DNA of 63,665 nucleotides, the filler included, from Craspedostauros australis (lineage: Eukaryota): the NCBI GenBank assembly GCA_030167865.1. It is 5 parts of 5 records of this genome, joined end to end, with 100 filler letters (N's around TTAATTAATTAA, not from the genome) between each part and the next. Parts side by side here need not be neighbours in the genome. Positions count along the whole stretch, not along the records: positions 1 to 20,036 come from JALAGF010005794.1; 4 more parts are not named here. One strand, given 5' to 3'. The stretch's first letter is position 1; each line of letters opens with the position of its first letter. Shown here piece by piece: positions 6,897-51,704 of the stretch. Both the position numbers and the translations under genes were made by a program. Under the pieces are notes generated by a model. The model was not told the origin of the DNA. It was given only the letters and a program-made list of their open reading frames with translations, and ran no database searches.

Positions 6897-9800
6897 ATGA
6901 CGCAGACCGACGCCGCTGCGCCATCCACGCCCAAATTGGCAGCCGCGAAGCGTCCAAACCCTGAGTTCTCCACGCCATCGCAGAAGACGGACGGAGGCCG
7001 CGTCTCCAAGAAGGTGGCTGCTACGACCCGCAACCGCTCGTCGGCCAAGCGCATCCTGTCGCGGTTGCTGGGATCGTGTGGGCCGACGACAGGCAGCAGC
7101 AAGGCCGCGGCCATCAGTCGTCTGTCAAGACGCAGCGCCACATTCAAGGCGGCCGTTCCCGATTCGCCCACTGTGGCTTGCGAGACGGTCGTTGATGAGA
7201 ATAAGGTCAATCGGAGTACCAGCGCGAGCACTAGTGTCAGTACTAGTGTGAGTACTAGTGTGAGCAACAACAACAACAATAGCAGTGACACTGGCAGTGA
7301 CAATAGCAGCGACAATAACAGTGACGACAACAACAGTGACAACAATAGCAGTGACAACAACAGCGATACCACCCAGAACACCGAACCCAACCAACCAACC
7401 CACGACGTCCGCGCCGTCGCATCCGCAGCAGCCAGCGCAATGGATAGCATGCCGTTGATGGTCACGTCTCCTGATGAAGAGATCACAATTCGAACAGTTT
7501 CCACAACAACGTCAGACATCACCGACAGCCTCATGAAGATCTCCATTCACAAGGAGTCGCCGCTGCCCAAGCAGCTCTTTTCGACCACTGATCAGGAGAA
7601 TATATCCAACTCCTGCAATGTGGCGTCGCCATCCACTGTCATGAACAACTCGAATCTCATCATTCCGACGCCCGACAAGTCGATCGATTATGACGGAACC
7701 ACGCAGCCTCTCCATGGGTTGCCGGGTATGGAGGAGATGCTGACGACGTCGCCGTTTGAAGATCATGAAGAAGATAGTGAGAACGGACAAGTCGATGATG
7801 ATGATGATGATGATGATGCCTTCCTTCCCGAGGACTTCAAGAAGGCCGTCATGGCAGATGAGGGACAAGAGTTGGAACATCCAGATGAAGCAGAATCAGA
7901 CGAAGATGAAGACAATCAACAGGATGAGGATGATCCAGACAACCAACAGCAACAGCAGCAGCAGCAGCAGCAAGGGCCGCAGCATGATGACGATCTCACA
8001 GTACCAACGTCTGCCACGACGACGACAGAAACACTGTACACGGAGAAACAGCTCCAAATCAGAATTGAAGAAGAAAGGCACCTGCTGCAACAGGAAATGG
8101 AGGCCGCCCACGAAGATCAGCTCAAGGACCTGCAGGACCAGGCCGAGGCAATGCTCAAGGAGCACGGTCAGCAATGGAAGGCAGAGTCCGACAAGGAGTA
8201 CCAGCGCATGCATCACAGGCTCAAGGAGGAGCAGAGCGCCTCGCTCAAGAAGAACCTAGACTTGGCCAAGAAGATCCTAGAGCTGGAAGACACCAAGGGC
8301 AAGCTTGCGGCGGCCGAAGAGACCAATGCCCAACTCGCCACGTTGCGGCAGGAACTTCACGATGCCAAGACCGCGGGACAGACGGAAGTGGCAGCACTCA
8401 AGGCGCAGATCGACCAACTCACCAACCACAACGAAACGGCATCCAACGAGGAACGCGAGAAGCTTCATGACGAATTGCACGCGTTGCGAGTGCAGCACAC
8501 GGCCTTGATTGCCGAGTCCAAGGCGACCAAGGAAGACCTCCAGGCCAAGGAGGCATCGCATGCGCAAGAGATGCAGCACCAAGTCGCGGAGACAGCAAAG
8601 CTCAATCAACAGTTGGACGCTCTCAAGCGCCAAAAGCAGGAGCAGCAACAGGCATTGCAAGCGCAGCTCGCCAATTACGAAGGTCAAGTTGCGAAGTTGC
8701 GCGACGACAATACGCGCATCCAAGAGGAACTGCAAGTGGCCCAGAAGGACAACGTGGCAACAGCCGTTTCGCACGATGACAAGTGCAAGACGTTGCAAGC
8801 CGAAATTGACGCGTTGAAGGAGCGCCTCGAACAATCCACCAACAGCTACACCGGTCAAGGCGCCGAACTCGAGCAGTGGAAGATGCAGGTCACGGCGCTG
8901 CAAGAGAAGATCGAATCGTCGGAGCACGTCAAGATCTGTCTGCAGGCATCGATCGGCGACCTCCAGAAGGCGCACAAGGACGAGATCGTCGCCATCCAGC
9001 AACAGTCGCGAGAGCAGCTGCAGAAGGTCCAAGGCGACTTGCAAACCCTGCAGACGTCGTCCAACGATGAGCGCACCCGGTTGCAGGGCCAACTGCAAAC
9101 CTTGCAGGAGGAGATGCGGCAGGTGCAGGCGGATCGCAACCAGGCCCTCAAGGCTGCGCGCGATGAGGCCAAGCAGGAGATGGAGCAGGCTCTGCAGAAC
9201 CTGGAGAATCAGCTGTCCAACATGCAGGCCGACGACTCCGTGCTGACGAAGAATCTCGCGGAGCTGCAGGCCCAGACGGAGGCCGACAGGAAGGCGTACG
9301 AGCAGCAGGTCGTGGGTGTGCGCATGGAGCACAGCAAGGAGATGGAGGAAGTGCTGGCGCAGCTCGATCTGGTGGAGGCCGAGCATTCCGAACGCATGCG
9401 GTCGAAGGAACGATCCATCACGGACAAGGACGCCGTCATCTCCGCGTTGGGGAACCAGCTCGCGGAAGTGCAGGTCACGCTGCAGAATGCCAAAGACCGG
9501 CAGGTGTCCGTCGAGGAGGAGCTGGGAGGCGTGCAGGCGAAGCTGAGCGACGCGCTGGGCGAGATCCAAGCCAAGAAGCAGGAGATTCAGCGGATGCAGA
9601 CGCATCACGAGCGCAGCATCGAAGAGCAGATGGTGGAACGCGATCGCGCCGTCGAGCAAGCACGCGATGAGATGATCGAACGCGCCGAATCCCAATTCGA
9701 GGAGCGCAATACCATGTACAAGAAATTGAAGATGGAGTATGACAACGCGTCTGCGATGAATCAAGAACTGGAGCAGCAGCTGGCGAACGCGGAGAAGCTC

Positions 9801-11371: not shown

Positions 11372-13486
11372 TCAACTCTCACCCATCCAACCTGGTTGGA
11401 TGATATTCATCACCCCGATGAAGATTGCCAGCAACAACGACAAGAAGGTGCCACCGAGATACAGCACCCCACCCATCGTGCTGCGAGAGGATTGCGACGC
11501 ATCGGTACCAGCGTCGTTGTGATCCACCTTCGCGCTCGCGCTCGTGTCGATGCCAACATCGACGTCTTCATCCAAGAAACCATCGCTGTCCTTCGTCGGC
11601 GCCCGCTCGTAACCGCGCTGCTTTCCCAACAGATCGTCCACCGAATGCGGCATGTACCCGATCACCAACAGGGGCAGCAGCTGCAACGCGCTCGTCAACA
11701 CCGTCAGCTTCGTCAATCCCGACAGATCACCGGCTTCCAGCGCCGGTTTGCTCACATCCCAAATGCCCAACAGCATCGTGCTCAACGACTCGCACAGCGA
11801 ATCCGCCACGTTCCACGTCGTCGTGAACAAGGCGTAGCTCGCGCCTTCGATGTTGCTGGGCACGAGGTTCACCATCAGCACGCAGAAGGGGATGTACTGC
11901 GATCCCAGCACGAAATCGCGCACGCCTTCGTCGCCCAGCGCAAACAAGAACGACGCCTTGCCCGCGATGAGCAGCAGCTGCAGCAACGAGAAGACGCCGT
12001 TGATCCAGATGCCGGCCAGGAACATGTACCGCCAGCTGTACCGATAGAGGACGCACTTGTACAGCACGACGCCGACGCACGTCATGATGCCGGCCGCGAA
12101 CGTCAGCGCGTTCAGTTGGTTGGGTGTGAAGAGGAGGACGGATGTGAGAAACTGCTTCCACGCGTCGTTGTAGACGTACGAGACGACGTAGATATAGACG
12201 AAGGCCATGGGTTGGTAGACACTGTGTGAACAGGCGGTGTGCCACAAGGATTGGAGGCGTTGGTGGAAGGTTCCGAATCCGTCCGCTCCCGCCGCATCGC
12301 GATGGACGTTGCGATCGTGGAGGTTGTAGAGAAATGGAATCAAGGTGATTGGGAGGCATGCGATCGCCGTGATGATCCATTGGGGTCCCGATGGCAAATT
12401 GTAGCACAGCGCGCTGATGGGCGTTGTGACGCCCATGCCAATTCCACGGCACAGATAGCAAAGCACCTGCAAGTTGCCACGTTGATCCTTGGGTTCGTAC
12501 TTGGCTTTTTCAGCGATGAGACTATCTCCCATAACATCGGCGAGCCAAATGCCCATGGCCCAGATGAAGACGGTGACGCAGAGCAGGGGCATGCTGGGTG
12601 CATTTGGTGGGACAATGACGAGTTCGTGCGCCGCGATTGGCATTGTTGCGGCATCATCTGCGTCACGCATTTCGGCATCATCGAATGATTGCGTTGCATT
12701 CAATGAAGCTTGCGCCTGTCGTTCCAAAGTGAGATCCGACAGCAGGAGCAACGAAAGCATGCTGATGCACGAGATCGTCCATCCGATGAACATGTAAGGT
12801 TTGCGACGGTAGCCGCAGATGGGCACGTTGTCGCTGAGGAAACCAAAGAAGATCTTGAAGCAGCTGGGCAGTCCCTTCAGCAACCAGATGGTGGCCTGCT
12901 GTGCTTCGGATGCGTTGAGTTGCAACGGGTAGACATTGATCAGCGGGTACAAGAGTCCTTGCACCAGGCCAACGTAGAGAAAGCAAAGCGGAATTCCAAC
13001 GTTGGAAGAACGCCACAGCTGTAACTCTCGCCGGTGCGCTTCGTTCTTGTGTTGCTGATCTTCCTCTTGTGGTTGCGGCTCGTCTTTGTCGTTGTGCCGT
13101 ACTGCTCGCAGTTCATTGCAGCGATCGTCCATATCAGTCGCATTCAACGAACGTCGGGAGCAGACAGTGCTGTGCAGTGCGCTTGTGCACGCCATTTCCA
13201 GTTCCGATTTGATCACAGCTGGCTTTTGATGGTCCAGATACTCCTGTTCATCATGGCCAGTTCCATCAATGGCATAGCGATGACGAGGATGCTGATCATG
13301 ACCTTGCTGATCAAGTGCCGCTGTCGCCATGTCCGAGCTGTCGCATTCGGTCAGATCCGCATCATCTCCGAACGCGCGGTGCTCCAAGTCATGATGCTGC
13401 GAGGGCGAATGCGGAGAAGGATTCTGAACTCTTGAGTACTGCATGACGATGGTGATGGGAGCCGTTGCTGCAAGTCCACATGTCAT
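11372..13486 (-). CDS. Folate-biopterin transporter (BT1/FBT family, MFS)
   Basis: Motifs LPSCFKIFFGFLSDNVPICGYRRKPYM, ADVMGDSLIAEKAKYEP..RGNLQ and EGASYALFTT, with many TM segments. Confidence 0.9.
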   Translation of the reverse strand: MTCGLAATAPITIVMQYSRVQNPSPHSPSQHHDLEHRAFGDDADLTECDSSDMATAALDQQGHDQHPRHRYAIDGTGHDEQEYLDHQKPAVIKSELEMACTSALHSTVCSRRSLNATDMDDRCNELRAVRHNDKDEPQPQEEDQQHKNEAHRRELQLWRSSNVGIPLCFLYVGLVQGLLYPLINVYPLQLNASEAQQATIWLLKGLPSCFKIFFGFLSDNVPICGYRRKPYMFIGWTISCISMLSLLLLSDLTLERQAQASLNATQSFDDAEMRDADDAATMPIAAHELVIVPPNAPSMPLLCVTVFIWAMGIWLADVMGDSLIAEKAKYEPKDQRGNLQVLCYLCRGIGMGVTTPISALCYNLPSGPQWIITAIACLPITLIPFLYNLHDRNVHRDAAGADGFGTFHQRLQSLWHTACSHSVYQPMAFVYIYVVSYVYNDAWKQFLTSVLLFTPNQLNALTFAAGIMTCVGVVLYKCVLYRYSWRYMFLAGIWINGVFSLLQLLLIAGKASFLFALGDEGVRDFVLGSQYIPFCVLMVNLVPSNIEGASYALFTTTWNVADSLCESLSTMLLGIWDVSKPALEAGDLSGLTKLTVLTSALQLLPLLVIGYMPHSVDDLLGKQRGYERAPTKDSDGFLDEDVDVGIDTSASAKVDHNDAGTDASQSSRSTMGGVLYLGGTFLSLLLAIFIGVMNIIQPGWMGES

Positions 13487-14313: not shown

Positions 14314-17300
14314 ATGAACATGAACACCCGATCTATGACCACCGATGAAGAACATCCCGCCTCAGGGGATACTCATGACAACCTGACCCACGTTCCTCCC
14401 ACGCAAGTCACCCACGACAATCACGAAGTCGCCGACGCGGCTCACAACATCGAAGCTGGCTTGATCAAGCCCTCTTCTGCTCTATCCCAAGCTCATGCTC
14501 ATGTTCATGCTACAACCCATTCCAACAACTCTGAGCACGATCAAATCCAGCAATCCATCAAAGACAAGACCTTCCTCGAACATATCAAGTTCATCGTCGA
14601 ACTCAAGTCCGACACCGTCTTCTCTACTTGGTACGACGGCAAAGGTAAACCGACCAACAACTCCACTTTCCGGCAATTGTGGGATGAAGCAGGACACTGC
14701 GCACACCTCATCCGCAACAAGTGGGGCGTTAACAAAGGCGACCGTGTCGTTCTCTGCTACGACTTCGGACTTCATTTCTTCGCCGTCTTCTTGGGATGTC
14801 TCCGTGCAGGAGTGACAGCCGTGCTGGTCTACCCTCCAGGACCGCCGCTCGTCAAGTCGCTCACCAAGATGAACATGGTGATCGAGGATTGCGCTCCAGC
14901 ACTCATCCTCACCCAAACATCCATCAATCTCCTTCGAGCCGTCGATCGCGCCAACCCAGCGTCCAAGAGTCGTGCCATGTGGCCGAGTGGAGTGAAGTAC
15001 CAAGTCACGGACCGCATCATCCGTCACGATCCGTTCATCACCGACAAGAACAAGAGCAACCTCAAGCAAGACAAGAAAGGTTTCCTTTCCAACCTCATCT
15101 CTGGCCGCTCGTCATCGCCGCCACCTTCCTTCGATGAGCCAGCTACCAATGGTTCGGACCTCGCCTTCCTCCAGTACACGTCTGGTAGTACCGGCAACCC
15201 CAAAGGTGTCATGGTGACCCATGACGCACTCAGGGCCAACATCGAACTTATCCATGGCAGTTGTTTGACGTGCATCGAAAATGATCTCTGTGATAGAGAC
15301 AAAATGCCAAAGCGATTCACGGCATGCTCATGGCTGCCGCAGTACCATGACATGGGCCTGATCCAGCTGGCCATTGCGCCTTTGTCCGGTGCCTTCCGTG
15401 TCCACATGATATCACCGGTCTCATTCATTCGCAACCCGCTGCTCTGGATCGATCTCATGTCGCAGCACAAATGCCATTTCAGCGCCGCCCCTGACTTTGG
15501 CTACCGTCTTGCAACGCGCAAGTTCAACGAGGCGAAGAGCAAAGAGAATGGGAAAGTTCATCCCATCCCGAACCTTGACCTATCTAACGTGTATCATCTG
15601 CAAAATGCCGCGGAACCAGCACGGCTGGACACAGAAAGGCAGTTCTATTCTGCATTCTGCTCATACGGGCTGCGCGAGGAATGGTTTGTGGCTGGGTATG
15701 GACTCGCAGAGAATGTGGTTGGTGTGAGTTTCAATCATGGATTCCATCTGTCAGCCATCCGCGAAGGTGAAGATCTCCAGCCATTCGTAGCCATCGCTGA
15801 ACGCTGCAATCTGCACAGTTCGATCAACATAATCATTGTGGATCCAGACACCTGCGTGCAACGTCCAGACAATGTGACTGGGGAGATCTGGATCGCCGGA
15901 GCCTCAGTCGCAGCCGGGTACTACAACCAAGCCCAGCTCACCGCCGACACATTCCAAGCTGCCTTGAAGGAGGATCCATCCAGTGAAGACGCCAGCGGGA
16001 AGAGTGGCAACACCCAAGTTCCGGCCACGGCCTACCTTCGAACCGGTGACTACGGCTTCTACCAAGATGATTATCTCTACATCTGCGGTCGCAAGAAAGA
16101 CATCATCATCGTCAGTGGTGTCAACTACTACCCGCAGGATGTTGAGCATGCCGTAGAGGAGGCGTCGTCCGCCGTCCGTCCAGGCTGCGTTGCGGCGTTT
16201 TCATCAGATGAAACAGGCAACGACGGACAGCTGGAGATCGTCTTTGAGATCCGATCGACCCATGCGGACGATGCCGCGGCAGTCTGCCAACAGGTCAGGA
16301 AGGCGGTGATCGAACAGATTGGGTTGACACCGGCAACAGTCGCCGCCGTCAAAGAACGCACCATCTCCAAAACAACGAGCGGCAAGATCCAGAGACGCCA
16401 AAATCGACAACGCCTGCATGATGGGACGCAGAAGATGGTGCTGGACGTGATCGAGAAGTCGCACTTCTTCAGCACACAGAATGGCAACCTTGCAAGCCAA
16501 TCCAAGCGCCTCTCGTTGAGGGCATCCAGCATCCAGGATTTCCAAATCAGAGACATGGACTTCTACGAGGTTGTGAAAACCGTCACAGCATCAGAAATCA
16601 GAGGCAACGAGAAATGGGAAGATATTGGACTGTCCTCCATGATGGAGCTCGAGCTTCGACAATCTCTATCTCAACGGTACAACGTGACGATTCCTCCCAA
16701 CTGCTTCGAGATCTATCCATCAGTCGGCGACTTGAAGGCGTTCCTGGAAGCATCGGCTGGGCAGTCACTGCCAATCAAACTCTCATTTCTCAAACGGCTT
16801 GCCACCATCCCCAACGAGAAGCCGCTTTCTTCGACAGTGTCCACAGCCTTCCAGGTCATCGGCGCGATAATGATCCTCTTCATCTTCGCGCTCCCCATCG
16901 TCCCAGCATTCGAAGTTGGAAAGGCGATCGCAAGCAACGATGATTCTGGGTTCCTATCTCGGCAAGCGTGGGTGCTGTATCCCTTGGTCATCATAACCTG
17001 GGCTATGACTCTCACAGCGGAGGTGATTCTCGCCAAGTGGATCGTCATTGGCCGGTACAGGGAAGGACATACCAACTTGGCCAACATCTACTTCCTCAGA
17101 TGGTGGTTCGTCGACCGGCTGATGCACGTATGGGAGCAGTTCGTCGGTCGGCTGATCATGGGAACACCCGTGATGGTGCTGTTCTACTATTTGATGGGTG
17201 TCGACGTGCATCCATCATGCATCATCAACGCATGCGTGCGTGAATTCGACTTGGTGAAGATTGGCGAACATGCAACCATCTCCACCCCCATCCGATGCCG

Positions 17301-19014
17301 AGTTTTCGGCCCATGGAAGGACAAGGAGCAAGGTCCCAGCATGAGGTTCCGCCAGATTCAAGTCGGATCCCACGCATCAATCAGGGGCGCCTTACTTCCT
17401 GGTGCCAAGGTCGGCTCCAACTGCAAAGTGCAACCCATCTCGGTGCTGGCCGAGGGCGCTCAAGCCCCGTCCAACACCACGATCAGAGGCAATCCAGGAT
17501 TCATCGATCCTACCACAGCAGGCGCGGTGAGTGGTACTGATGCTCTTTGCGATGGTGATGGATCCAAGAACGCGGCATCAAACCCACGCACTCAATCTCC
17601 TGCCACTGACAGCAACGGCAGCAGTAGGTACGGGTGGATGGCATTGGGAACGATGAAGATGCTGTGGTTGTTTTTTGAGCTATACTTCGCCTTCGGCTGC
17701 TTCCTACTCGTGGATATCTTGATGGGAGGTGGTCATGCAGAGTGGAGATACACGGGGCTCCTCTCCTGGATATCCATCGCCATGCTCACATCCGTAGTCT
17801 TGCTGATTACGAGTATCATCTTGAAGTGGGCGCTGATCGGCAAGAAGCGGCCAGGTGCTGCACGGGCAGGTGTTCTGACAGACTTCGCCAACTGGGCATG
17901 CGACTATCACTTTCGCCTTGGAGCGACGCTGCTATTCGACCTCACATTCAACTCGGTGATGTGGAATCTTGTGCTGATGGCCCACGGCATGGACATCGAT
18001 ATCTCATCCAAGGTGGTGGCAGGTTGCTTCCCCCCATCCAAGCTCGATCTCGTCACGGTCAGAAGATCCTTCATCTCCTTTTGCAACATCGATGTTGAAG
18101 AGGATGGCGAATACAAGATGACCAAGGTTGAGGACAGCAGTGTCAGCATGAAGCTCACGTGCGCCCCCGGCGTGACGATCCAAAAATCATTGATCACTCC
18201 GGATACAGACGTCACCAACGACATGATCAATGACGACCATCATCCAAGGAACCATCCTCTCAGCTTCTGGCAGACCTTGCAATACCATACCAACACGACG
18301 CTGCTCTACGCTGTCGTACTCGTCGTGGCGGCGGCTAGCTTCATTCCATCCTATGAACTGTGGATGAACGTGATCAAACCACAAACATCGTTTGATGCGG
18401 TTCCGGTGGTCGTGATTTGCATCGTCATTCAGGACATCATCTGGCAAGGACTCTTGCGAGTTGTCGAGTCCATCGCACTGGTCGGTGGTGTCAAGCACGA
18501 GGTCCCTTGGAGCCTTGCGCTGTACGCGATCTACCAATCAGTCTGCAACTCGATTCATGATTGGTCTTTCGTTGCAGTGCTTTGTGGCACACCCATGATG
18601 AAATCGGTATTGCGGTTCCGCGGCGCCGATGTCCAAGGACGGTTGCTATACTTCGGATTCCGCGTCTACGAAGCCTCGTACATCACATTCGCAGATGGCG
18701 CTGTGATCGACGATTGCATCGTCAACGGTCACTCGGGTGTGTTCTCGAAGGTGACATTGGGAACCTCGTACATCGATGGTGTGATGCATCCATCGTCCTT
18801 CGTGCTGATGAGAAAGGGACCGGCGACTGCTCCAACTACGACTTCATTGGTTGAGCATGCCGCAGGGAAGATGATCACCGACAGCCAACCATCGGCCAAA
18901 GGCCAGGATTGCACAACGTCTGACGCACCAGTATCGCTGGAGGACGAAGATCGCGAATCCGCAGAGTCGCTTGCTCCAAGTGATCACTGTGGAGAGGAGG
19001 TGGACATCGTGTGA
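14314..19014 (+). CDS. NRPS-like membrane enzyme: fatty acyl-AMP ligase + acyl/peptidyl carrier + Pls/TIGR02353-like TM and beta-helix region
   Basis: FAAL motifs LAFLQYTSGSTGNPKGVMVTH, SWLPQYHDMGLI, GYGLAE, GEIWIAGASVAAGYY, YLRTGD, GRKKDIIIVSGVNYYPQDVE and KTTSGKIQR. Carrier motif WEDIGLSSM at about 16615-16641. Three repeated TM-pair + beta-helix units (AKWIVIGRYREG..YFLRWW, GTPVMVLFYYLMG, VKIGEHATI, LKWALIGKK, LCGTPMMKSVLRFRGADV). Confidence 0.85.
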   Translation: MNMNTRSMTTDEEHPASGDTHDNLTHVPPTQVTHDNHEVADAAHNIEAGLIKPSSALSQAHAHVHATTHSNNSEHDQIQQSIKDKTFLEHIKFIVELKSDTVFSTWYDGKGKPTNNSTFRQLWDEAGHCAHLIRNKWGVNKGDRVVLCYDFGLHFFAVFLGCLRAGVTAVLVYPPGPPLVKSLTKMNMVIEDCAPALILTQTSINLLRAVDRANPASKSRAMWPSGVKYQVTDRIIRHDPFITDKNKSNLKQDKKGFLSNLISGRSSSPPPSFDEPATNGSDLAFLQYTSGSTGNPKGVMVTHDALRANIELIHGSCLTCIENDLCDRDKMPKRFTACSWLPQYHDMGLIQLAIAPLSGAFRVHMISPVSFIRNPLLWIDLMSQHKCHFSAAPDFGYRLATRKFNEAKSKENGKVHPIPNLDLSNVYHLQNAAEPARLDTERQFYSAFCSYGLREEWFVAGYGLAENVVGVSFNHGFHLSAIREGEDLQPFVAIAERCNLHSSINIIIVDPDTCVQRPDNVTGEIWIAGASVAAGYYNQAQLTADTFQAALKEDPSSEDASGKSGNTQVPATAYLRTGDYGFYQDDYLYICGRKKDIIIVSGVNYYPQDVEHAVEEASSAVRPGCVAAFSSDETGNDGQLEIVFEIRSTHADDAAAVCQQVRKAVIEQIGLTPATVAAVKERTISKTTSGKIQRRQNRQRLHDGTQKMVLDVIEKSHFFSTQNGNLASQSKRLSLRASSIQDFQIRDMDFYEVVKTVTASEIRGNEKWEDIGLSSMMELELRQSLSQRYNVTIPPNCFEIYPSVGDLKAFLEASAGQSLPIKLSFLKRLATIPNEKPLSSTVSTAFQVIGAIMILFIFALPIVPAFEVGKAIASNDDSGFLSRQAWVLYPLVIITWAMTLTAEVILAKWIVIGRYREGHTNLANIYFLRWWFVDRLMHVWEQFVGRLIMGTPVMVLFYYLMGVDVHPSCIINACVREFDLVKIGEHATISTPIRCRVFGPWKDKEQGPSMRFRQIQVGSHASIRGALLPGAKVGSNCKVQPISVLAEGAQAPSNTTIRGNPGFIDPTTAGAVSGTDALCDGDGSKNAASNPRTQSPATDSNGSSRYGWMALGTMKMLWLFFELYFAFGCFLLVDILMGGGHAEWRYTGLLSWISIAMLTSVVLLITSIILKWALIGKKRPGAARAGVLTDFANWACDYHFRLGATLLFDLTFNSVMWNLVLMAHGMDIDISSKVVAGCFPPSKLDLVTVRRSFISFCNIDVEEDGEYKMTKVEDSSVSMKLTCAPGVTIQKSLITPDTDVTNDMINDDHHPRNHPLSFWQTLQYHTNTTLLYAVVLVVAAASFIPSYELWMNVIKPQTSFDAVPVVVICIVIQDIIWQGLLRVVESIALVGGVKHEVPWSLALYAIYQSVCNSIHDWSFVAVLCGTPMMKSVLRFRGADVQGRLLYFGFRVYEASYITFADGAVIDDCIVNGHSGVFSKVTLGTSYIDGVMHPSSFVLMRKGPATAPTTTSLVEHAAGKMITDSQPSAKGQDCTTSDAPVSLEDEDRESAESLAPSDHCGEEVDIV

Positions 19015-21159: not shown

Positions 21160-22539
21160 GTGTTTCGTCGGTTTTCCCGTGTCTTGCTGGCGATCGGCGC
21201 TCTGTTTGTGGGATGGGAGTTCTTTGGATTTCAAATGATGTACTCCGGACCCTGCGACGCAGAGCGAAGAAGTAAACCATCCGGATTGAAGTCAGGTAAC
21301 ACATCGGCGATGGGCAACAGCGGACGTCCCAAAAGCGAGAATCTTGATTTCATCGTGGGAAGCGATGACAATCAGATCTTCGATCTGCAAGGTTTGCAGC
21401 CGAGAGTATGGGAGCGACGGTGGGATGGGAATTGGAGATCATCATCTTCACCATCGACATCTACTTCACCAGCAGCGGCAGCATCGTCATCAAAAGCACT
21501 ACCGCCATTGCCATGTTTCCAACCAAACAATGATATCGATTCAGAGAACTGGCGATCACGAACAAAAACGAAGAATGGGCTCGTCTTCATCAAGCCTACG
21601 AAGACAGGCGGTTCAACATTCGCGGGCATTCATCTACGCATCGCCAGGAATGTCGCCGTGCGACAGAGTCTGCCTGAGAACAAGGAAAAGAACAATCCCA
21701 ACTTCCCGACAATGTGCAAGGTGCGATTCGGGCACGGCGCGGCAAGCACGACCGTCCCAAATCGCGATCGAGCAGCATCTTTTCTATGGACGGTCATACG
21801 AAACCCCACCAAGCGTGCCATCAGTGGCTTCTTTCATTTCCATGTCTCCAGACGCAAGGTGGAACCGTCGGATGCAAACTTCCAAGACACCCTCATAAAG
21901 AATCCGCTGAACTTCAAGAGTGGCTATCTGCGATTGATGCAGCATCGGCAACCAGCGGTGCCGCCACGTATCCAGAAAAGTTCCATCAATCCAAACGTTT
22001 ACACCGTCGGCGCCATCATAGAGGATTTCGACTTCATCGCGATCACGGAACGCATGGAAGAATCCCTTGTCGTGCTGCAGTACCTCTTGAATCTCCCCCT
22101 CGACGATGTCCTTTACCTCAGCGCCAAGGTCAGCGGCGGATTCGACGACGGACGCTTCCAAGACACGTGCTTCCACATCATCCCCAGCTTCGTCACACCG
22201 GGAATGCGCGACTTCTTCCAACACAACACCACATGGCACCAGATGTCACGATGGGATCGATTGCTGTACGAAGTCGCCAATCAGAGCCTCGATCGCACCA
22301 TCGAGAAGATCGGACGCAAACGCGTCGATGCCGCCGTCATGCGGTTGCGTCATGCGTTGCGCGACATTCAAGATCGATGTGCCGACACCGCCGCCTTTCC
22401 TTGTTCGGTTGCGGGGGAACGGCGCAATGATACCGCTCATCAGTTGGATTGCATGTGGGTTGACATGGGTTGTGGCACACCCTGCATCGATCAGTATGTG
22501 AAAGAACGGGGCTTGTCGGACGTCCTGTGGGATGGATGA
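21160..22539 (+). CDS. Golgi-type sulfotransferase (galactose-3-O-sulfotransferase-like); start uncertain
   Basis: 5'-PSB FIKPTKTGGST, 3'-PB WTVIRNPTKRAISGFFHF, DFDFIAITERMEESLVVL and an N-terminal TM anchor. Confidence 0.8.
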   Translation: MFRRFSRVLLAIGALFVGWEFFGFQMMYSGPCDAERRSKPSGLKSGNTSAMGNSGRPKSENLDFIVGSDDNQIFDLQGLQPRVWERRWDGNWRSSSSPSTSTSPAAAASSSKALPPLPCFQPNNDIDSENWRSRTKTKNGLVFIKPTKTGGSTFAGIHLRIARNVAVRQSLPENKEKNNPNFPTMCKVRFGHGAASTTVPNRDRAASFLWTVIRNPTKRAISGFFHFHVSRRKVEPSDANFQDTLIKNPLNFKSGYLRLMQHRQPAVPPRIQKSSINPNVYTVGAIIEDFDFIAITERMEESLVVLQYLLNLPLDDVLYLSAKVSGGFDDGRFQDTCFHIIPSFVTPGMRDFFQHNTTWHQMSRWDRLLYEVANQSLDRTIEKIGRKRVDAAVMRLRHALRDIQDRCADTAAFPCSVAGERRNDTAHQLDCMWVDMGCGTPCIDQYVKERGLSDVLWDG

Positions 22540-23036: not shown

Positions 23037-24416
23037 ATGAAGGAGAACACGAGAAGATCTCGCAGGGTTCCGGGAATTCCCACCAGCTGCAAGTACGCTC
23101 TCCTCCTTGCTGCCGTCGTCCTCTTCGTTGCTTGGGAATCCATGACAGTGCGCAACTTGGGCAGCCGTGACGACGAAGCTGCGCTGTGCGATGGCACAGA
23201 GATCAACGCGATGTCCGCAATGTGCACACCAGCAGAACGGCAACACGCCAAACCAAAGGCCGATTTCGTCAGCCTCCATCTCCAAGAGCACCCCATCGAT
23301 CTGCATGGCATCCAACCACGATTTTGGAAGCCGCGATGGGATTCAAAGCTCAATGACAATGCAGATGCTGGCAATAGCATGGAACAAGCTTCCGCGACTC
23401 ACAAATTGCCATTGCCTTGCGTCCAGCCTGACAACGAAGGACCCGACGACGATTGGATGACGCTAGCTGCCACGAGCACGGGCTTCATCTTCATCAAACC
23501 CAACAAAGTCGCCAGCACAAGCTTTGCCGCTGTCAACTTGCGCATCGCCCGCAACGCGGCACTGCGACAGGACCTGCCAAGCAACGACTACAACAGTCCC
23601 CACCATCGACGCATGTGCAAGGCCCGGTTCGAGCATGGCGCCGCGCGCGATCTGATTCGCCAACCGCGCGGTCAGTCTTTCCTGTGGACCGTCCTGAGAC
23701 ATCCGACGCGGCGTGCCGTCAGCCTCTTCTTCCATTTCCGCGTCTCGCGAACCAAGGTGGAACCGACCGACGAGAACTTCGAACGCATGCTGCGCAATGG
23801 CCTGCGGCCGCAGCTTGAGGATCATTATTTGGATTACATGCGGTTGCGGCCCAAAGGCGGAAACGACGATCCGGTTGCCGCGATCCGCGACATCATGGCC
23901 AACTACGATTTCATGGCCGTCACGGAACGCATGGACGAATCCATCGTCGTGCTGCAGTACTTGCTGAACCTGCCGCTGGACGACATGCTCTTCTTGAATG
24001 CCAAGGTCCACGGCGGATTCGACGACGCGCGATACAAGAATCGTTGCGTCCATATCGTGCCGAGCTTCGTGACGCCGTACATGCAATCCTTCTTTCGCAC
24101 GGATGAGTATTGGCAAACCACGATCCGATGGGACGAAGTCCTGCACGAGCTTGCGAACCAGAGCTTGGATTTGACGATCGAATCCATCGGACGGGAACGA
24201 TTTGACAAGGCCCTGTCGAGGTATCGCGTGGAGTTGAAACGGGCGCGCGATGCTTGTACGGAGGAAGCCGTATTTCCGTGTTCCGTGGGCGGCACGAAGA
24301 TGCCCGATGAGCTGACGCAGAAGGATTGCTTCGTGCACGACATGGGATGCGGCACGCCGTGCCTCGATCGTCATGTGCAGGCAAATGGATTGTCGCACGT
24401 GTACTTTGATGGCTGA
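23037..24416 (+). CDS. Golgi-type sulfotransferase, tandem paralog
   Basis: FIKPNKVASTS, WTVLRHPTRRAVSLFFHF, YDFMAVTERMDESIVVL and a type II TM anchor. Collinear with the upstream paralog. Confidence 0.85.
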   Translation: MKENTRRSRRVPGIPTSCKYALLLAAVVLFVAWESMTVRNLGSRDDEAALCDGTEINAMSAMCTPAERQHAKPKADFVSLHLQEHPIDLHGIQPRFWKPRWDSKLNDNADAGNSMEQASATHKLPLPCVQPDNEGPDDDWMTLAATSTGFIFIKPNKVASTSFAAVNLRIARNAALRQDLPSNDYNSPHHRRMCKARFEHGAARDLIRQPRGQSFLWTVLRHPTRRAVSLFFHFRVSRTKVEPTDENFERMLRNGLRPQLEDHYLDYMRLRPKGGNDDPVAAIRDIMANYDFMAVTERMDESIVVLQYLLNLPLDDMLFLNAKVHGGFDDARYKNRCVHIVPSFVTPYMQSFFRTDEYWQTTIRWDEVLHELANQSLDLTIESIGRERFDKALSRYRVELKRARDACTEEAVFPCSVGGTKMPDELTQKDCFVHDMGCGTPCLDRHVQANGLSHVYFDG

Positions 24417-24669: not shown

Positions 24670-26730
24670 TCACTTTGTCGAGACATCCAGTTTTTGTCGT
24701 TTGGCTGGTGTCGGCCGTTTCGTTGCATGATGATGCTCGTCATCCGAATCATCGTCGCCGTCCATGCCGGCCTGCCCTTCCGATACTTGCGCCGCGAGAT
24801 TCTTCTGCTCGATCTCTTCGACGAGACCGCGCAATGCCCTGGACGAATCGGATTCCTGACCGTTCTTGGGCAGGTTGGTGAGCTCGGTGGCCTTGCGGCG
24901 GTTCGTGGAGGATTCCTTGCGTTCGGCACCTTCCGATTCTGCCGTGTCGAGGACCTGCTCGTTGAGCCTGTGGATCATGTTGATGAAGAGGCGTTCGTCT
25001 TCGTAGAGACCTTCCTTGCCTTCTCGTAGGAGGTGCTTGGAGACCTCTTCGTAAAGGCGTTCGCAGCGCGTGATCATCTCCATGACGCGGGGGTAGCTGG
25101 TGAAGTTGGCCTTGTTGACGACGTTGGCCATGAATGCGTTGCGCGTGTCGTATCCCGTGACCTTGTCGTGCTTCTTGAGTATCTTGGAGAAGCTGCAGTA
25201 GGTCATGATGGCGAAGGTCTCGAGGAGGAGGAGGTCCTTGTAGAGACGGTATATGCTCTTGGCGAGGAGGGACCATTTCTCGTCGACCATGATTGAGTTT
25301 GGCTGCTTCATGATCTCCATCCCCTTGCGCACCCGTTCCTCGCGGATGATGAACTCCTGCTGGGCGCGGTCGAAGAAGTGCGATGCCTTTTTGAACTCCG
25401 CGTGCAGGAGCTTGAAGAATGCGATTTCGCCCGGTGATTTGCCGATGGTTCGTCTGGACGTTGTGACGGCCTGTGGTTGTCGCGTTGTTGCCACTGCCAC
25501 TGCTGCTGATGTGATTGCTGTTGTTATTGATGCCGATGCCGGATGTGATTGCTGGTGCTGTGGTTGTGCTTGTGACTGTTGTTGCTGATGCGTTTGTTGT
25601 TGTTGCTGTTGATGTTGCTCCTGTCCATGCTGCGAACCTGAGAATGTACTTCGTTTCAGAGACGCGCTGAAAGATAGGAGTGTTTCATGATGCTGCTGTC
25701 TGTCTGCCTTTTGTGCATTGTCCGTCGTTTTGTCTGCTTGTCTTAGCGCCGCCGCCATGGAAGAAGCAGATGTGATCGATGAATCGATGGAAGCCGCCGG
25801 TGATTCAGGACGCGGTCGTTTGGCTTTGCCTCCTTCTGTTGGAACTAGTGATGGCAATTCTTTGATCAGTTTCTGTCATCATGTGATGCGGTGACGTTGT
25901 TGTGCACATTGGATGCGTACAATTGGATGTATTCATTGGATGTATTCATTGGATGTATTCATTGGATGTATTCATTGGATGCGTGCATGGGTAGAAGAGA
26001 AATGAGACAGTCCGAGCATGGGAAAGGTGATTTGGTGAGAAATGGTCGTACCAGCAGAGTATTGCAAGTTGGAATGATCGAGAGAACGTAAACACAGCCG
26101 GCGTCGTCGAATGGTGTGATTGGGCGAGTATTGCGGCGTTGCGGACGATGCTTGGACCCATGGTCGTGGGTTGTCCGCCATTGCCGAGATCGTGTTCATC
26201 GTGTTTGTGCGACGAATCTCCACGATGGCGGGAGATTCGGGAGTGACGCGCACCGCATTTATTGGGATTCTCGAACGTGGAAGCTGCGTCTGCGCCCTTC
26301 TTCATCTGCGGTCATGTGCATGTGTGCGCATCCGAATGAAGAGGCTGCCGCTGATCATGTCCATGCGCATGGCCATGAGTGTATCTGGATGTTGCCATCG
26401 ACGACGATGAAGAAGACAATGCGTACTTGTGGAGCAATAGCATGATGACGACTAACTGCCGCCGCGATTCCACCATCATTGAAGAAGCAGCCACCACAAA
26501 TCCGAAGACGTTCCCACTGGAAGATGTCACCTCTGCATGACGTTCACGTTGCCTCTCCTGCTCTCACACATCCCATTGCGCATCATCGACAATGACGAAG
26601 GTGTTGTGACGAACACACAAAGCAGTTCCAGCATCATTCTTACCTTGAGCATCTTGTAGTTGGTCCAGTACGGAGCCCATTCTGGATCGGAGATGTCCAC
26701 CACCCGTTGCAGGTTCTTGCAGAACTTCAT
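24670..26730 (-). CDS. SPX-domain phosphate-sensing protein; exons 26730-26644 and 25872-24670 (about 429 aa)
   Basis: SPX N-terminus MKFCKNL..PEWAPYWTNYKMLK|KLIK is joined across a GTAAG...CAG intron. FFKLLHAEFKKASHFF and the lysine cluster FSKILKKHDK are present. Confidence 0.92.
25922..25981. repeat. 13-bp tandem repeat (ATTGGATGTATTC)x4.6 in the SPX intron
   Basis: Seen directly in the sequence. Confidence 0.9.
26213..26239. promoter_or_regulatory. Inverted pair of CGAATCTC motifs in the SPX intron (candidate PSR/PHR-type sites)
   Basis: CGAATCTC at 26213-26220 and GAGATTCG at 26232-26239. Confidence 0.5.
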
Positions 26731-28159: not shown

Positions 28160-29176
28160 TCAGTATTCCCGAAAGGAGCCCACCAACAGATCCTCCATCA
28201 CGTCATCGGTCACGACTTGGAAGGACATCTCCGTTGATCCCTCGCACAAGCCTTCATCATCGATGATCTTGACGGCGTGCAATGACACGATCTGATTGTC
28301 ATTCTCAAACAGCAAGCCTTCCAACGAATCGAACACGAACTTCGAGAGGTTGTCGACGTCGCTGCGGATGGGCTTCAATGCGACGGGCGCGTTGTCCTTC
28401 CGATTGCCAATTTCTCGGCGGCTACTCACGAAGTCGTGATTCGGACGGCGTTTGCGAAAGATGATCGTCACGGCGAGGTACTGGTCCTCCCCAAACAGTG
28501 TGGGCCGCGATTTGGCGGAGAGTTTCTTCCAGACCCCAAAGCCGGGCGTCGTCGCATCGTCGACCGCGAGCAGCTGCTGTTCCACGGCCTTGCAGAATGA
28601 AGCCTGGTACTTGGCAGATGGATTGTACACGTGACCACGCGCTGTGCGATGCCGATTCAGCGGGCGCGGCTCTCCTCGGATCTTAGTTCGGAAGAGCTGC
28701 GGTGAGTTCGCGCACTTCAGTATCGTCTCGTCCGCGCTGTCGATCCAATGGAACACCTCCTTTTCCTTCTTTGGCTTCGTCGTCTTTTTCTTTTTCTTGA
28801 CTGCTGCCTTCCTGCCTTTCTTCTGGCCTTTCTTCTTTGCCTTGATTTCGGGAAGAGACCGTGTCAGTTCTCCAGTTTCGGTGTTGGCGCTCATGTCACC
28901 ATTCAGCGTGGAGGCAAGCAGCCGGTGGGTTCTCTTGCGCTGGCTTGGCATCGACAGCGCGCTTCTTATCTCTCCCTGCTCCTGTCGTGGTCGGCACACA
29001 TTGTTGTGCTGCCAAGTCAACAACACACCTATTGACACGGACGACGACGACGGTGGCTTACTACTCCGCATGCGCGGCTGCGGAAGAAAGGGAGAAGCTG
29101 GCTGCAGCAACAACATCAGGATGCTGGCCAACTGAATCAGCTTGCTCCCGCTGGTGTTCCGTATCGTGCCCATCAT
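28160..29176 (-). CDS. RusA-family Holliday-junction resolvase with putative bipartite (plastid) presequence
   Basis: IRGEPRPLNRHR..GHVYNPS and the catalytic DVDNLSKFVFDSL..LFENDNQIV. The N-terminal hydrophobic stretch ends in ASP-F and is followed by an S/R-rich segment. Confidence 0.8.
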   Translation of the reverse strand: MMGTIRNTSGSKLIQLASILMLLLQPASPFLPQPRMRSSKPPSSSSVSIGVLLTWQHNNVCRPRQEQGEIRSALSMPSQRKRTHRLLASTLNGDMSANTETGELTRSLPEIKAKKKGQKKGRKAAVKKKKKTTKPKKEKEVFHWIDSADETILKCANSPQLFRTKIRGEPRPLNRHRTARGHVYNPSAKYQASFCKAVEQQLLAVDDATTPGFGVWKKLSAKSRPTLFGEDQYLAVTIIFRKRRPNHDFVSSRREIGNRKDNAPVALKPIRSDVDNLSKFVFDSLEGLLFENDNQIVSLHAVKIIDDEGLCEGSTEMSFQVVTDDVMEDLLVGSFREY

Positions 29177-31814: not shown

Positions 31815-33527
31815 ATGGGGACATCGTTGAAGCCATTGGCGGTCATCGTCATCACAGCAAGCGCTTGGTTCATCGTCACTTCCTTCATCCTCACAAGCAT
31901 CGCCATTGAAAGCACAAGCAACCATCTTCAGGACTATGATCATCGCGCGGTCAAAGATCCGCATCGGCTCGGGCATCGGCAAGATGACAAACGTGGCCCG
32001 ATCTCTGCCACCATCAATGGAAGCAGCGTGAATGTCCATGGAGAGCAGACCACACCACACGCAGCCACAAGTGCAAAAACAACGGCAACTTCAGGCACAA
32101 CCACGAGCAAACGCAACGACGAGCCGCTCAATATTCTGCTCCTGTACGCCGATGATTGGAGCTTCACCACACTCGGTGCGATGGGTAATCCCGTGGTCAA
32201 GACACCGCATCTCGACGATATGGCATCCAAAGGGATCCTCTTCACGCACAACTGCGTCACGACATCCATCTGCTTCGTCAGCAGGGCCAATCTGTACACA
32301 GGACAGTACGCCTCGCGACACCAGACCTTTCAGCCGTGGGAGAATTTGACCATGCTGCAACCGGACAACTGGAGGGATGCCTTGCACCCCCAACTCGTGG
32401 CGAACGGATATCACGTTGGGTTTTATGGCAAATGGCATCACAGCGAGGTGGAGATCCCACATGACGCAGTTCCGACGTTCACAGAGCATGCCTTCGCTCC
32501 TTGGGAGCATTACATCCAACTTGAGAATGGTGAGACGATGCACATCACAGAAGCCAACAAGCTTGATGGAATGCGGTTTCTGAAGGATCGTCCCAAAGAC
32601 AAGCCATTCGCTTTGACTATCAGCTTCTTTGCGACGCACGCGGAGGATGCCACAGAACAGCAGTACCGACCCATGAAGGAGACGGCGCATCTGTACGACA
32701 ATCAGACCATCCCGCATCCCAAGACGTACACGGAGAAACACTGGAATGATTTACCGCACTTCTTTGATGCGAACAACATGGCAAGAACGCGATTCCAAGA
32801 ACGGTACAAGGATGATGCTACCTATCAGGATATGATGACCAAGACGTACCGCATGGCATCCGAAGTCGACACGGCCTGCGGTGAGCTGATCCAGATGCTG
32901 GAGCAGCAGGGCGTTCTCAATTCCACTCTCGTCATCTTCACCACCGACAACGGCAACATGCACGGTCAGCACGGGCTGGCGGAAAAATGGTACGCCTTCG
33001 AAGAGAGCTTACGCGTCCCGCTCATCGTTATGGACCCCCGCATGCCGGCGCACACCATTGGAACGAAGAACTCTGATTTTACATTGAGCATCGACTTGGC
33101 ACCGACGATACTCTCCGCGGCCCAAATCTCGGTTCCGAGTCGCATGCAAGGTCGCGACATTGCCGAGTTGTACCGGAACGCATCGTCGCAGCCACAACCT
33201 GATGACCGCACGGCGGCGACGTTTCCACCATGGCGTCAAGAATTCTGGTACGAATTCTACACTCCGCCGTTGGCGTCGTTTGTGAAGAACCACAAGGCCC
33301 AGACCCGCTTGATGAAACGACGGCTGCCTTCCAACCTTGCCTTGATTCGGAAGGATCACAAATACATGTACTGGCCGGATCATCAGTACGAGCAGATCTT
33401 CCATTTGAAACAGGACCCGCACGAAGAATACGACGTGTACAACCAAACGCCGGCGTCGGTTGTGCTGGAATTGCGTGAGCGGATGGAGGCGTTGCGCGTG
33501 CGGGCGGTCGCAGGGCATCCGATGTGA
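31815..33527 (+). CDS. Formylglycine-dependent sulfatase (S1), membrane-anchored or secreted
   Basis: NILLLYADD, TPHLD, CFVSRANLYTGQY, GKWH, TLVIFTTDNG, EKW..FEESLRVPL, IDLAPT and DPHE. Confidence 0.92.
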   Translation: MGTSLKPLAVIVITASAWFIVTSFILTSIAIESTSNHLQDYDHRAVKDPHRLGHRQDDKRGPISATINGSSVNVHGEQTTPHAATSAKTTATSGTTTSKRNDEPLNILLLYADDWSFTTLGAMGNPVVKTPHLDDMASKGILFTHNCVTTSICFVSRANLYTGQYASRHQTFQPWENLTMLQPDNWRDALHPQLVANGYHVGFYGKWHHSEVEIPHDAVPTFTEHAFAPWEHYIQLENGETMHITEANKLDGMRFLKDRPKDKPFALTISFFATHAEDATEQQYRPMKETAHLYDNQTIPHPKTYTEKHWNDLPHFFDANNMARTRFQERYKDDATYQDMMTKTYRMASEVDTACGELIQMLEQQGVLNSTLVIFTTDNGNMHGQHGLAEKWYAFEESLRVPLIVMDPRMPAHTIGTKNSDFTLSIDLAPTILSAAQISVPSRMQGRDIAELYRNASSQPQPDDRTAATFPPWRQEFWYEFYTPPLASFVKNHKAQTRLMKRRLPSNLALIRKDHKYMYWPDHQYEQIFHLKQDPHEEYDVYNQTPASVVLELRERMEALRVRAVAGHPM

Positions 33528-48661: not shown

Positions 48662-48761
48662 NNNNNNNNNNNNNNNNNNNNNNNNNNNNNNNNNNNNNNN
48701 NNNNNTTAATTAATTAANNNNNNNNNNNNNNNNNNNNNNNNNNNNNNNNNNNNNNNNNNNN
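48662..48761. other. Artificial scaffold linker
   Basis: TTAATTAATTAA at 48706-48717 within Ns. Confidence 0.95.
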
Positions 48762-51604: not shown

Positions 51605-51704
51605 NNNNNNNNNNNNNNNNNNNNNNNNNNNNNNNNNNNNNNNNNNNNTTAATTAATTAANNNNNNNNNNNNNNNNNNNNNNNNNNNNNNNNNNNNNNNN
51701 NNNN
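51605..51704. other. Artificial scaffold linker
   Basis: TTAATTAATTAA at 51649-51660 within Ns. Confidence 0.95.

Follow-up and report, generated by a model that had tools for sequence, protein, structure and literature searches.

A Diatom Gene Joining a FAAL-Type Adenylation Domain and a Carrier to a Pls-Like Membrane Module

Introduction

Epsilon-poly-L-lysine synthetase (Pls) and delta-poly-L-ornithine synthetase (PosA) consist of an adenylation (A) domain, a carrier domain, and a terminal domain that has six transmembrane (TM) segments in three pairs and three soluble units of the left-handed beta-helix (LbH) type. To our knowledge, Pls-type terminal domains have been known solely as cationic amino-acid polymerases, in bacteria and a few fungi. 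Here we report a gene with the same layout in a diatom, Craspedostauros australis (GenBank assembly GCA_030167865.1), whose A domain is of the fatty acyl-AMP ligase (FAAL) type and not of the amino-acid type. The gene is intact, intron-free, and of diatom type, and encodes a fatty-acid-activating enzyme and a carrier domain fused to a Pls-like membrane end module. It occupies 14314..19014 of a window of 63,665 nucleotides (the whole stretch of DNA analyzed), which is eukaryotic nuclear DNA. Positions 1-20,036 of this window come from record JALAGF010005794.1; later positions come from other records, which were joined and are not necessarily neighbors in the genome.

The LbH fold is also found in acyltransferases such as PerB, QdtC, and the serine and maltose O-acetyltransferases, which move an acyl group from a thioester to an amine or a hydroxyl. 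These are soluble homotrimers with CoA or free acyl carrier protein (ACP) as donor, whereas the diatom protein has three unequal units in one chain, TM hairpins, and a carrier in cis. Two LbH enzymes, LpxA and LpxD, take acyl-ACP donors. Bacterial FAALs hand the acyl group to a carrier, not to CoA, and are characterized by a FAAL-specific insertion between the A5 and A6 motifs. In the available part of the PosA report, an AlphaFold model of PosA is described as having six bent TM helices and three five-turn left-handed beta-helices in an approximately three-fold packing that resembles sugar-nucleotide acyltransferases (PMC10522769).

According to the available part of a 2026 survey, diatoms are the eukaryotes with the largest number of FAALs, with 2.9 per genome and 16 in Seminavis robusta, and FAAL fused to polyketide synthase (PKS) is mentioned for Bacillariophyta (PMC12820801). 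Neither "Pls" nor "hexapeptide" occurs in the main text of this survey, and its supplements, as far as covered, contain no TIGR02353, NRPS_term_dom, LbH, or hexapep (PMC12820801). The architecture described here may explain part of the diatom FAAL count in that survey. In the literature, we found no description of a FAAL-carrier-Pls-like architecture or of polylysine synthetase-type enzymes in diatoms, and no known product for any member of this enzyme family.

Results and Discussion

Gene Structure

A single uninterrupted open reading frame (ORF) of 1566 amino acids (aa) plus stop fills the region on the plus strand; its product is labeled P0001 here. If uniform codon use is assumed, 1566 stop-free codons have a chance probability of approximately 1e-33, and the longest other ORF overlapping the region on either strand has at most 195 aa. 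The ORF is colinear over its full length with 19 relatives in a 20-sequence family alignment, and therefore no intron is required, in agreement with the initial annotation of this DNA. As that annotation had also noted, no condensation (C), ketosynthase (KS), thioesterase (TE), or reductase (R) domain is recognizable in the product (Pfam, E <= 0.1), and the positions it gave for the ORF, the adenylation motifs, and the GLSS motif of the carrier all proved accurate. The features of the gene and of its surroundings are listed in table 1.

The FAAL-Type Adenylation Domain and the Carrier

By sequence comparison, the A domain falls among FAALs, apart from both acyl-CoA ligases and A domains for amino acids. 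In Pfam, an AMP-binding match (PF00501, aa 114-537, E = 1.7e-55) is followed by the DIP2-like/FAAL-type C-terminal subdomain PF23024 (aa 596-697). Beyond these and the carrier, Pfam gave hexapeptide matches below threshold and no further domain. Four of the top five NCBIfam models are FAAL models (PRK05850, 1.5e-84; FadD32, 1.7e-82; PRK12476; PRK09192), which score much higher than the amino-acid adenylation model TIGR01733 (122.1 bits vs. a cut-off of 317.4). When the domain was compared with PDB sequences, the best 15 matches were all FAAL entries or a FAAL-type PKS loading domain, with E-values from 1e-71 to 1e-41 (7r7f, 1e-71; the Legionella FAAL 3kxw, 7e-70; FadD32; FAAL28/FadD28; FadD23; 3pbk), whereas the acyl-CoA ligase FadD13 was matched at merely 2.8e-14. 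FAAL or acyl-CoA ligase was the alternative on which the initial annotation had rested its reading, and NCBIfam, PDB sequences, and the phylogeny described below all fall on the FAAL side.

The core motifs of the ANL superfamily (A3, A5, A7, A8, and the A10 lysine) are all present, from 15169 to 16395, within the range of about 14570-16430 proposed for a full FAAL motif set. YGLAE, GEIW, and TTSGKIQR are identical in three annotated bacterial FAALs; the equivalent motifs are YGPTE, GELx, and SGKVDR in the A domains of Pls, and FadD7-like A domains have YGMTE. The A5-A6 spacing is 56 aa, compared with 66-70 in the three bacterial FAALs and 42-43 in six non-FAAL A domains. Across the family it is mostly 55, and it falls to 44 in some members, which have almost no insertion. 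Unlike its bacterial counterparts, the diatom FAAL shares one chain with its carrier and a membrane LbH domain.

The carrier was found where it had been annotated, with a PF00550 score above the gathering cut-off. Ser775, the last residue of GLSS, is invariant in all 20 aligned family members, although the residue before it varies, and is the predicted site of phosphopantetheine attachment. A relative with an amino-acid-type A domain (P0150) contains a fused phosphopantetheinyl transferase (PPTase).

The Pls-Like Terminal Domain

Kyte-Doolittle hydropathy revealed six TM segments in three pairs (838-873/887-907, 1114-1139/1146-1177, and 1326-1351/1358-1384), with the same pair spacing as in the annotated Pls/PosA protein P0045. 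The C-terminal 756 aa match TIGR02353 with an E-value of 1.2e-19, and the strongest part of this match spans positions 24-209 of the 695-position profile. Units cut from alignments built in this analysis were then compared by hhalign. Unit 1 of the diatom family matched Pls units 1, 2, and 3 with probabilities of 100%, 99.7%, and 99.7% (E = 5e-40 to 2e-25), unit 2 matched the Pls units with 97.4-97.8%, and unit 3 with 94.4-96.7%. Similarity among the diatom units themselves is much lower (unit 1 vs. unit 2, 96.8%, E = 3e-10; unit 1 vs. unit 3, 96.3%, E = 1.6e-9; unit 2 vs. unit 3, E = 1e-4) than among the Pls units (E = 1e-36 to 6e-48). These profile comparisons indicate homology of every diatom unit with the Pls units and a strong drift of units 2 and 3. 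The proposed similarity of the C-terminus to TIGR02353 and Pls is thus borne out.

AlphaFold2 (AF2) models were confident, both for aa 745-1515 (30 alignment rows, pLDDT 83.8, pTM 0.86) and for aa 1104-1510 (pLDDT 90.7). In both, each unit begins with a long helical hairpin and a strand, which are followed by two helices and a beta-rich module. The initial annotation had described three units of a TM pair plus a hexapeptide/beta-helix-like region: the three TM pairs with helical/beta modules stand, but a hexapeptide signal is seen at the sequence level in unit 1 only, where it is below threshold (aa 1009-1057; Hexapep_GlmU 17.7 bits vs. a cut-off of 23.3), and units 2 and 3 can be recognized only by profile comparison or fold. 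A Foldseek search retrieved LbH acyltransferases. Individual fold matches by VIA, which cover units 1 and 2, gave Z-scores of 12-12.8 for unit 1 (aa 910-1074; PerB 4eab, Z 12.8, rmsd 2.9, 99 aa; maltose O-acetyltransferase MAT 3igj, Z 12.2, 145 aa) and 8-8.7 for unit 2 (aa 1167-1312; 3ect, Z 8.7, 132 aa). No solved Pls terminal domain was found among PDB sequences, in which the C-terminus has weak hexapeptide/gamma-carbonic anhydrase matches (E >= 0.02). The true Pls P0045 likewise matched A- and carrier-domain entries only, including 7wew, a 509-residue epsilon-poly-L-lysine synthase chain that aligns with P0045 residues 10-498. The order of elements in the diatom model is that of the PosA model in the available part of its description, and the A-carrier-(TM pair + soluble unit)x3 layout claimed earlier is upheld by the TM pairs, the models, and that description (PMC10522769).

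P0001 keeps all 14 residues picked as conserved across four classes of these domains (FAAL-linked, FadD7-like, Pls, and the actinomycete proteins described below), namely Q847, K908, W909, G913, R914, R929, W930, W931, G962, D979, L980, G984, G1059, and P1061. Judging from this conservation, unit 1 is the best-conserved unit and likely the catalytic one. The protein lacks a signal peptide and its TM elements are all hairpins, which should place FAAL, carrier, and all three soluble units together on one side of the membrane, presumably the cytosolic one. Such cytosolic facing has also been proposed for Pls.

Distribution and Domain Fusions

The initial annotation had presented the enzyme as a single-gene system; far from being a lone gene, it is a member of a multi-paralog family of ochrophytes, mainly diatoms. 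A search with the terminal domain retrieved 29 proteins at E <= 4e-87 and 30-41% identity, of which eight carry the name Seminavis robusta and one that of Chaetoceros tenuissimus; with a further named Seminavis protein (P0273), this species has at least nine. PF00501 was present in 26/29 of these proteins and PF23024 in 18/29, and the tail typical of nonribosomal peptide synthetases (NRPSs), PF13193, in 0/29. The other 44 matches (E = 5e-30 to 6e-6) were mostly Pls-like, and 36 of them contained PF13193. The 20-sequence alignment, at 25-47% identity, has many invariant residues in units 2 and 3.

An exhaustive search of representative sequences gave 1072 matches at E <= 1e-3 (97 at E <= 1e-30). 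Fifty-eight new representatives of at least 1000 aa, from the best 150 of the 1072, were scanned with Pfam: PF23024 was detected in 23, PF13193 in 12, and neither in 23. No bacterial-named match in this search had the PF23024 tail; all were PF13193-bearing or stand-alone carrier plus Pls-like proteins (T-PlsC). The nearest cluster in the ESM Atlas has 53 members, 94% of them from Eukaryota, with Bacillariophyta the commonest group. In public databases, members carry automatically assigned names, among them "fatty-acid--CoA ligase FadD21" and "non-ribosomal peptide synthetase".

Several relatives have additional domains. Fusions of a FAAL and a flavin adenine dinucleotide (FAD) oxidase with the terminal domain were found in P0009, P0037, P0077 (which also has an alpha/beta hydrolase), and P0087 (which has two tandem FAALs). 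P0204 (2920 aa) is a PKS hybrid of the form FAAL-T-KS...ACP-PlsC (T, carrier), P0207 has a terminal domain fused to a WW domain, and P0129, from a eukaryote transcriptome collection, is a more canonical FAAL-T-hexapeptide form. The occurrence of this domain with KS, FAD oxidase, and hydrolase domains suggests that it may serve as a general off-loading or transfer module for acyl thioesters.

Two further groups of proteins share part of this plan. Proteins with a FadD7-like A domain, a carrier, and a Pls-like domain form a second eukaryotic class, present in diatoms (Stephanodiscus and Nitzschia) and the fungus Microdochium (P0055, P0065, P0074). They differ from the FAAL-linked family in that their A domain is of the acyl-CoA-synthetase type, similar to PRK05852, and in their TIGR02353 scores of 195-225 bits (P0055, P0065, P0072, P0074), which are below the cut-off as well. 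P0069 was assigned to the class from its A domain and from its place in the unit-1 tree. Our searches turned up no characterized product for this class. Free FAAL-ACP proteins of stramenopiles (approximately 750-800 aa; oomycetes, Bicosoecida, and other diatom FAALs) have the FAAL and PP-binding core, at 32-37% identity, but not the terminal domain.

Phylogeny and Origin

Trees were built as quick IQ-TREE runs, with support from the Shimodaira-Hasegawa-like approximate likelihood ratio test (SH-aLRT) only. The A-domain tree (64 rows) separates 58 FAAL-type rows from six outgroup rows (SH-aLRT 99). P0001 is inside a clade of 22 diatom rows (99), which is sister to fragments from Chrysoparadoxa (99) and, one step further out, to fragments from Pelagophyceae (96). 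A second FAAL-PlsC group (99) and the stramenopile FAAL-ACPs (13 rows, 100) are separate clades. As to a horizontal origin, the deep branches connecting the bacterial, oomycete, and algal FAAL clades had no support in this quick tree, which includes only three bacterial rows.

In the unit-1 tree (58 rows, arbitrary root), all 34 FAAL-linked domains are on one side of a branch (99) and are sister to seven FadD7-like ones (96), apart from 13 bacterial/amino-acid-type Pls and four actinomycete T-PlsC rows. This separation fits a single ancient joining of a FAAL to this branch of terminal domains, followed by diversification, and not a recent exchange of the A domain in a bacterial Pls. The earlier idea that a FAAL had replaced the amino-acid A domain of a Pls is disfavored by this separate FAAL-linked clade and by the very low TIGR02353 score given below.

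Stand-alone T-PlsC genes, encoding proteins of approximately 820 aa, are common in actinomycetes (Streptomyces, Amycolatopsis, and Pseudonocardia). In our sample, 597/600 pattern matches were confirmed and 80 loci (L001-L080; for example, 7001-9495 and 9422-12016 in L001) were kept. Most of the 80 have a same-strand stop-to-stop ORF just downstream with a weak adenylation-profile match, and the 69 ORF matches to the diatom FAAL profile all scored 23-57 bits. Five ORFs were scanned with Pfam. Three downstream neighbors (L001, L019, and L013) are NRPS-type A-T proteins with AMP-binding_C, one of which adds a TE domain and one a C-domain fragment; the remaining two are L074, a separate A-T ORF, and L046, a full Pls-like ORF of the form A-T-hexapeptide. 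FAAL-type ORFs are absent from these five (0/5), and a split bacterial cassette of a FAAL and a T-PlsC as ancestor was rejected for the 80 sampled loci. We know of no description of such a split Pls-like system, in which a T-PlsC gene is followed by an A-T ORF.

Proposed Function

Based on these homologies, the protein is probably a membrane-anchored, self-contained acyl-transfer enzyme in which the FAAL would load the carrier and the terminal domain would pass the acyl group to a separate acceptor. Domain order, homologies, fold, residue conservation, and family distribution are directly supported, and the steps of the mechanism are drawn from homology. The FAAL-type domain would adenylate a carboxylic acid, most likely a fatty acid, with ATP to form acyl-AMP, and the fused carrier, not CoA, would then receive the acyl group on the phosphopantetheine arm of its Ser775. 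Three TM hairpins would hold three cytosol-facing modules of helices and LbH, with the conserved residues in unit 1. An acceptor bound in this LbH assembly might then attack the acyl thioester through its amine or hydroxyl group, and an N- or O-acylated product would be released at the membrane. The initial annotation had put forward an acylated component of the cell wall or extracellular polymeric substances, a polyester, or a lipo-amide as candidate products.

The same layout could instead belong to a true Pls-style polymerase, in which the FAAL loads a hydroxy- or amino-fatty acid and the terminal domain condenses it iteratively to a polyester or polyamide extruded at the membrane. Consistent with this, the layout is that of homopolymer synthetases, Pls and PosA (the latter in the available part of its report; PMC10522769), all three units are kept conserved across 20 relatives, and the FAD oxidase domains of paralogs could tailor the chain. 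However, a plain fatty acid has no second nucleophile and cannot be polymerized, so that a single transfer is likelier unless the substrate is a hydroxy or amino acid; there is no sign that the FAAL accepts such a bifunctional substrate. In addition, the terminal domain is in a clade apart from the bacterial polymerases, and units 2 and 3 are far more diverged than the Pls units (see the E-values above). We therefore regard polymerization as unlikely. The same holds for an isopeptide-linked homopoly(diamino acid), the type of product made by Pls and PosA, given that the loader is of the FAAL type.

Several observations weigh against the acyl-transfer scheme. On the adenylation side, the FAAL models all score far below their curated cut-offs (PRK05850, the best, 284.3 bits vs. 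775; FadD32, 277.5 vs. 975), which were set on models built on bacterial proteins. The FAAL-specific insertion, approximately 14 aa, is about half as long as in the three bacterial FAALs (24-28 aa), and as it is nearly absent in some family members, exclusion of CoA is not assured. The carrier barely exceeds its own threshold (PF00550, 23.2 bits vs. 20.8). In the terminal domain, TIGR02353 scores 70.2 bits against a cut-off of 423.1, compared with 577-620 for four true Pls/PosA proteins, and by this measure and the type of its A domain the diatom protein, which is also set apart by its eukaryotic host, is not a formal member of the Pls/PosA family. Given the strong divergence of units 2 and 3, and with no KW motif in unit 3, the pseudo-trimer may have only one working site or an altered role. 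We know of no established catalytic residues in Pls-type domains onto which the conservation could be mapped, and no neighboring gene in the window points to an acceptor.

The reduced insertion and the scores under every curated FAAL cut-off would also fit an A domain that is FAAL-like by descent only and activates a short, aromatic, or amino acid, in which case the product would not be a lipid; the presence of at least nine named Seminavis proteins suggests substrate diversification. Such a substrate seems improbable to us, considering that long-chain FAALs are consistently the best matches, that bacterial FAALs have identical core motifs, and that TIGR01733 remains far under its cut-off. Similarly, the degenerate units 2 and 3, the very low TIGR02353 score, and the existence of free FAAL-ACPs of about 750 aa in stramenopiles could mean that the terminal domain is a noncatalytic membrane anchor or regulatory scaffold for a FAAL-ACP serving another enzyme, or that the gene is decaying. 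This is very unlikely, as the ORF is intact over 4.7 kb, unit 1 keeps every cross-class conserved residue examined, many residues of units 2 and 3 are invariant across 20 relatives, and the AF2 models are confident.

Acyl transfer to a separate acceptor thus remains the reading we prefer. The architecture itself is real, conserved, and testable. This membrane module is coupled here to fatty-acid activation, and in relatives to the KS of a PKS and to FAD oxidases, within a family of eukaryotic proteins that has expanded in benthic diatoms. It points to a general device for off-loading or acyl transfer at membranes, and to diatom lipids or lipo-conjugates without known biosynthesis. As the protein comes from a single intronless ORF, it can be tested directly by heterologous expression. 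A bolder and rather doubtful proposal is that diatoms and other ochrophytes have private "lipid assembly lines" at the membrane. A FAAL or FAAL-PKS would feed a pseudo-trimeric Pls-like beta-helix domain, which would either polymerize functionalized fatty acids into a polyester or polyamide that is extruded, or N-acylate a diatom-specific acceptor (such as long-chain polyamines, or components of the wall or extracellular polymeric substances). In both cases, one gene would make a new class of algal surface or signaling lipid.

Table 1. Coordinates of the FAAL-Pls-like gene, its parts, and other genes in the window
Feature	Position	Strand	Basis
Whole ORF, 1566 aa + stop, no intron needed	14314..19014	+	ORF call, colinear alignment with 19 relatives
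N-terminal extension, aa 1-84, His/Thr-rich, unaligned and not conserved in family, without hydrophobic signal peptide	14314..14565	+	Alignment, hydropathy
FAAL-type A domain, aa 85-720, shortened FAAL-specific insertion between YGLAE and GEIW	14566..16473	+	Pfam, NCBIfam, PDB sequences, tree, motifs
A3 motif LQYTSGSTGNPKGV (contains YTSGSTGNPKG)	15169-15210	+	Motif positions
A5 motif YGLAE	15697-15711	+	Motif positions
GEIW motif	15880	+	Motif positions
LRTGD motif	16036	+	Motif positions
GRKKD motif	16087	+	Motif positions
A10 motif TTSGKIQR	16372-16395	+	Motif positions
Carrier (PP-binding) domain, Pfam aa 759-811	16588..16746	+	Pfam, family alignment
Predicted phosphopantetheine site Ser775 in GLSS (aa 772-775)	GLSS 16627-16638, Ser codon 16636-16638	+	Motif, alignment
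TM hairpin 1, aa 838-907, superfamily-conserved Q847	16825..17034	+	Hydropathy, AF2, conservation
Soluble unit 1, aa 908-1075, KWxxxGR/RWWFVDR/REFDL motifs, GNP cap, two helices + left-handed beta-helix	17035..17538	+	Profiles, fold
TM hairpin 2, aa 1114-1177	17653..17844	+	Hydropathy, AF2
Soluble unit 2, aa 1178-1312, diverged, keeps W1194/D1197, GMDID, PPSKLDL, and KW (1171-1172); shorter beta-helix	17845..18249	+	Alignment, hhalign, model
TM hairpin 3, aa 1326-1384	18289..18465	+	Hydropathy, AF2
Soluble unit 3, aa 1385-1500, most diverged, without KW motif, beta-rich in model; invariant G1425, G1437, G1489	18466..18813	+	Alignment, hhalign, model
C-terminal tail, aa 1501-1566, acidic, low confidence (pLDDT < 50)	18814..19011	+	Sequence, AF2 model
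BT1-family (folate/biopterin-type) transporter, just upstream of the FAAL gene, opposite strand	11372-13486	-	Window annotation
Galactose-3-O-sulfotransferase-like ORF, PF06990, one of tandem pair	21160-22539	+	Pfam
Galactose-3-O-sulfotransferase-like ORF, PF06990, second of tandem pair	23037-24416	+	Pfam
SPX-domain ORF, downstream	24670-25857	-	Window annotation
RusA endodeoxyribonuclease domain ORF, 338 aa, PF05866 E 3e-9	28160-29176	-	Pfam
Sulfatase, PF00884 E 5e-38	31815-33527	+	Pfam
Copia-type long terminal repeat retroelement pieces: gag PF14223, Pol beta-barrel PF22936 twice, gag-pre-integrase, RVT_2	48710-56496	-	Pfam

Surrounding Genes

Apart from the FAAL gene, the window contains the BT1 transporter, the two galactose-3-O-sulfotransferase-like ORFs, an SPX protein, a sulfatase, DnaJ, bestrophin, and copia-type retroelement pieces; no obvious partner such as a PPTase or thioesterase is nearby in the window. 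The tandem ORFs match PF06990 with E-values of 4e-14 and 5.5e-4. Along the joined stretch, this pair and the sulfatase are 2-15 kb downstream of the FAAL gene, and this neighborhood may serve sulfated glycan or lipid metabolism. The gag-pre-integrase and RVT_2 pieces of the retroelement lie in a 1565-aa ORF at 51799-56496 on the minus strand. RusA is a Holliday-junction resolvase of the bacterial/phage type, and a RusA domain is present in this eukaryotic window.

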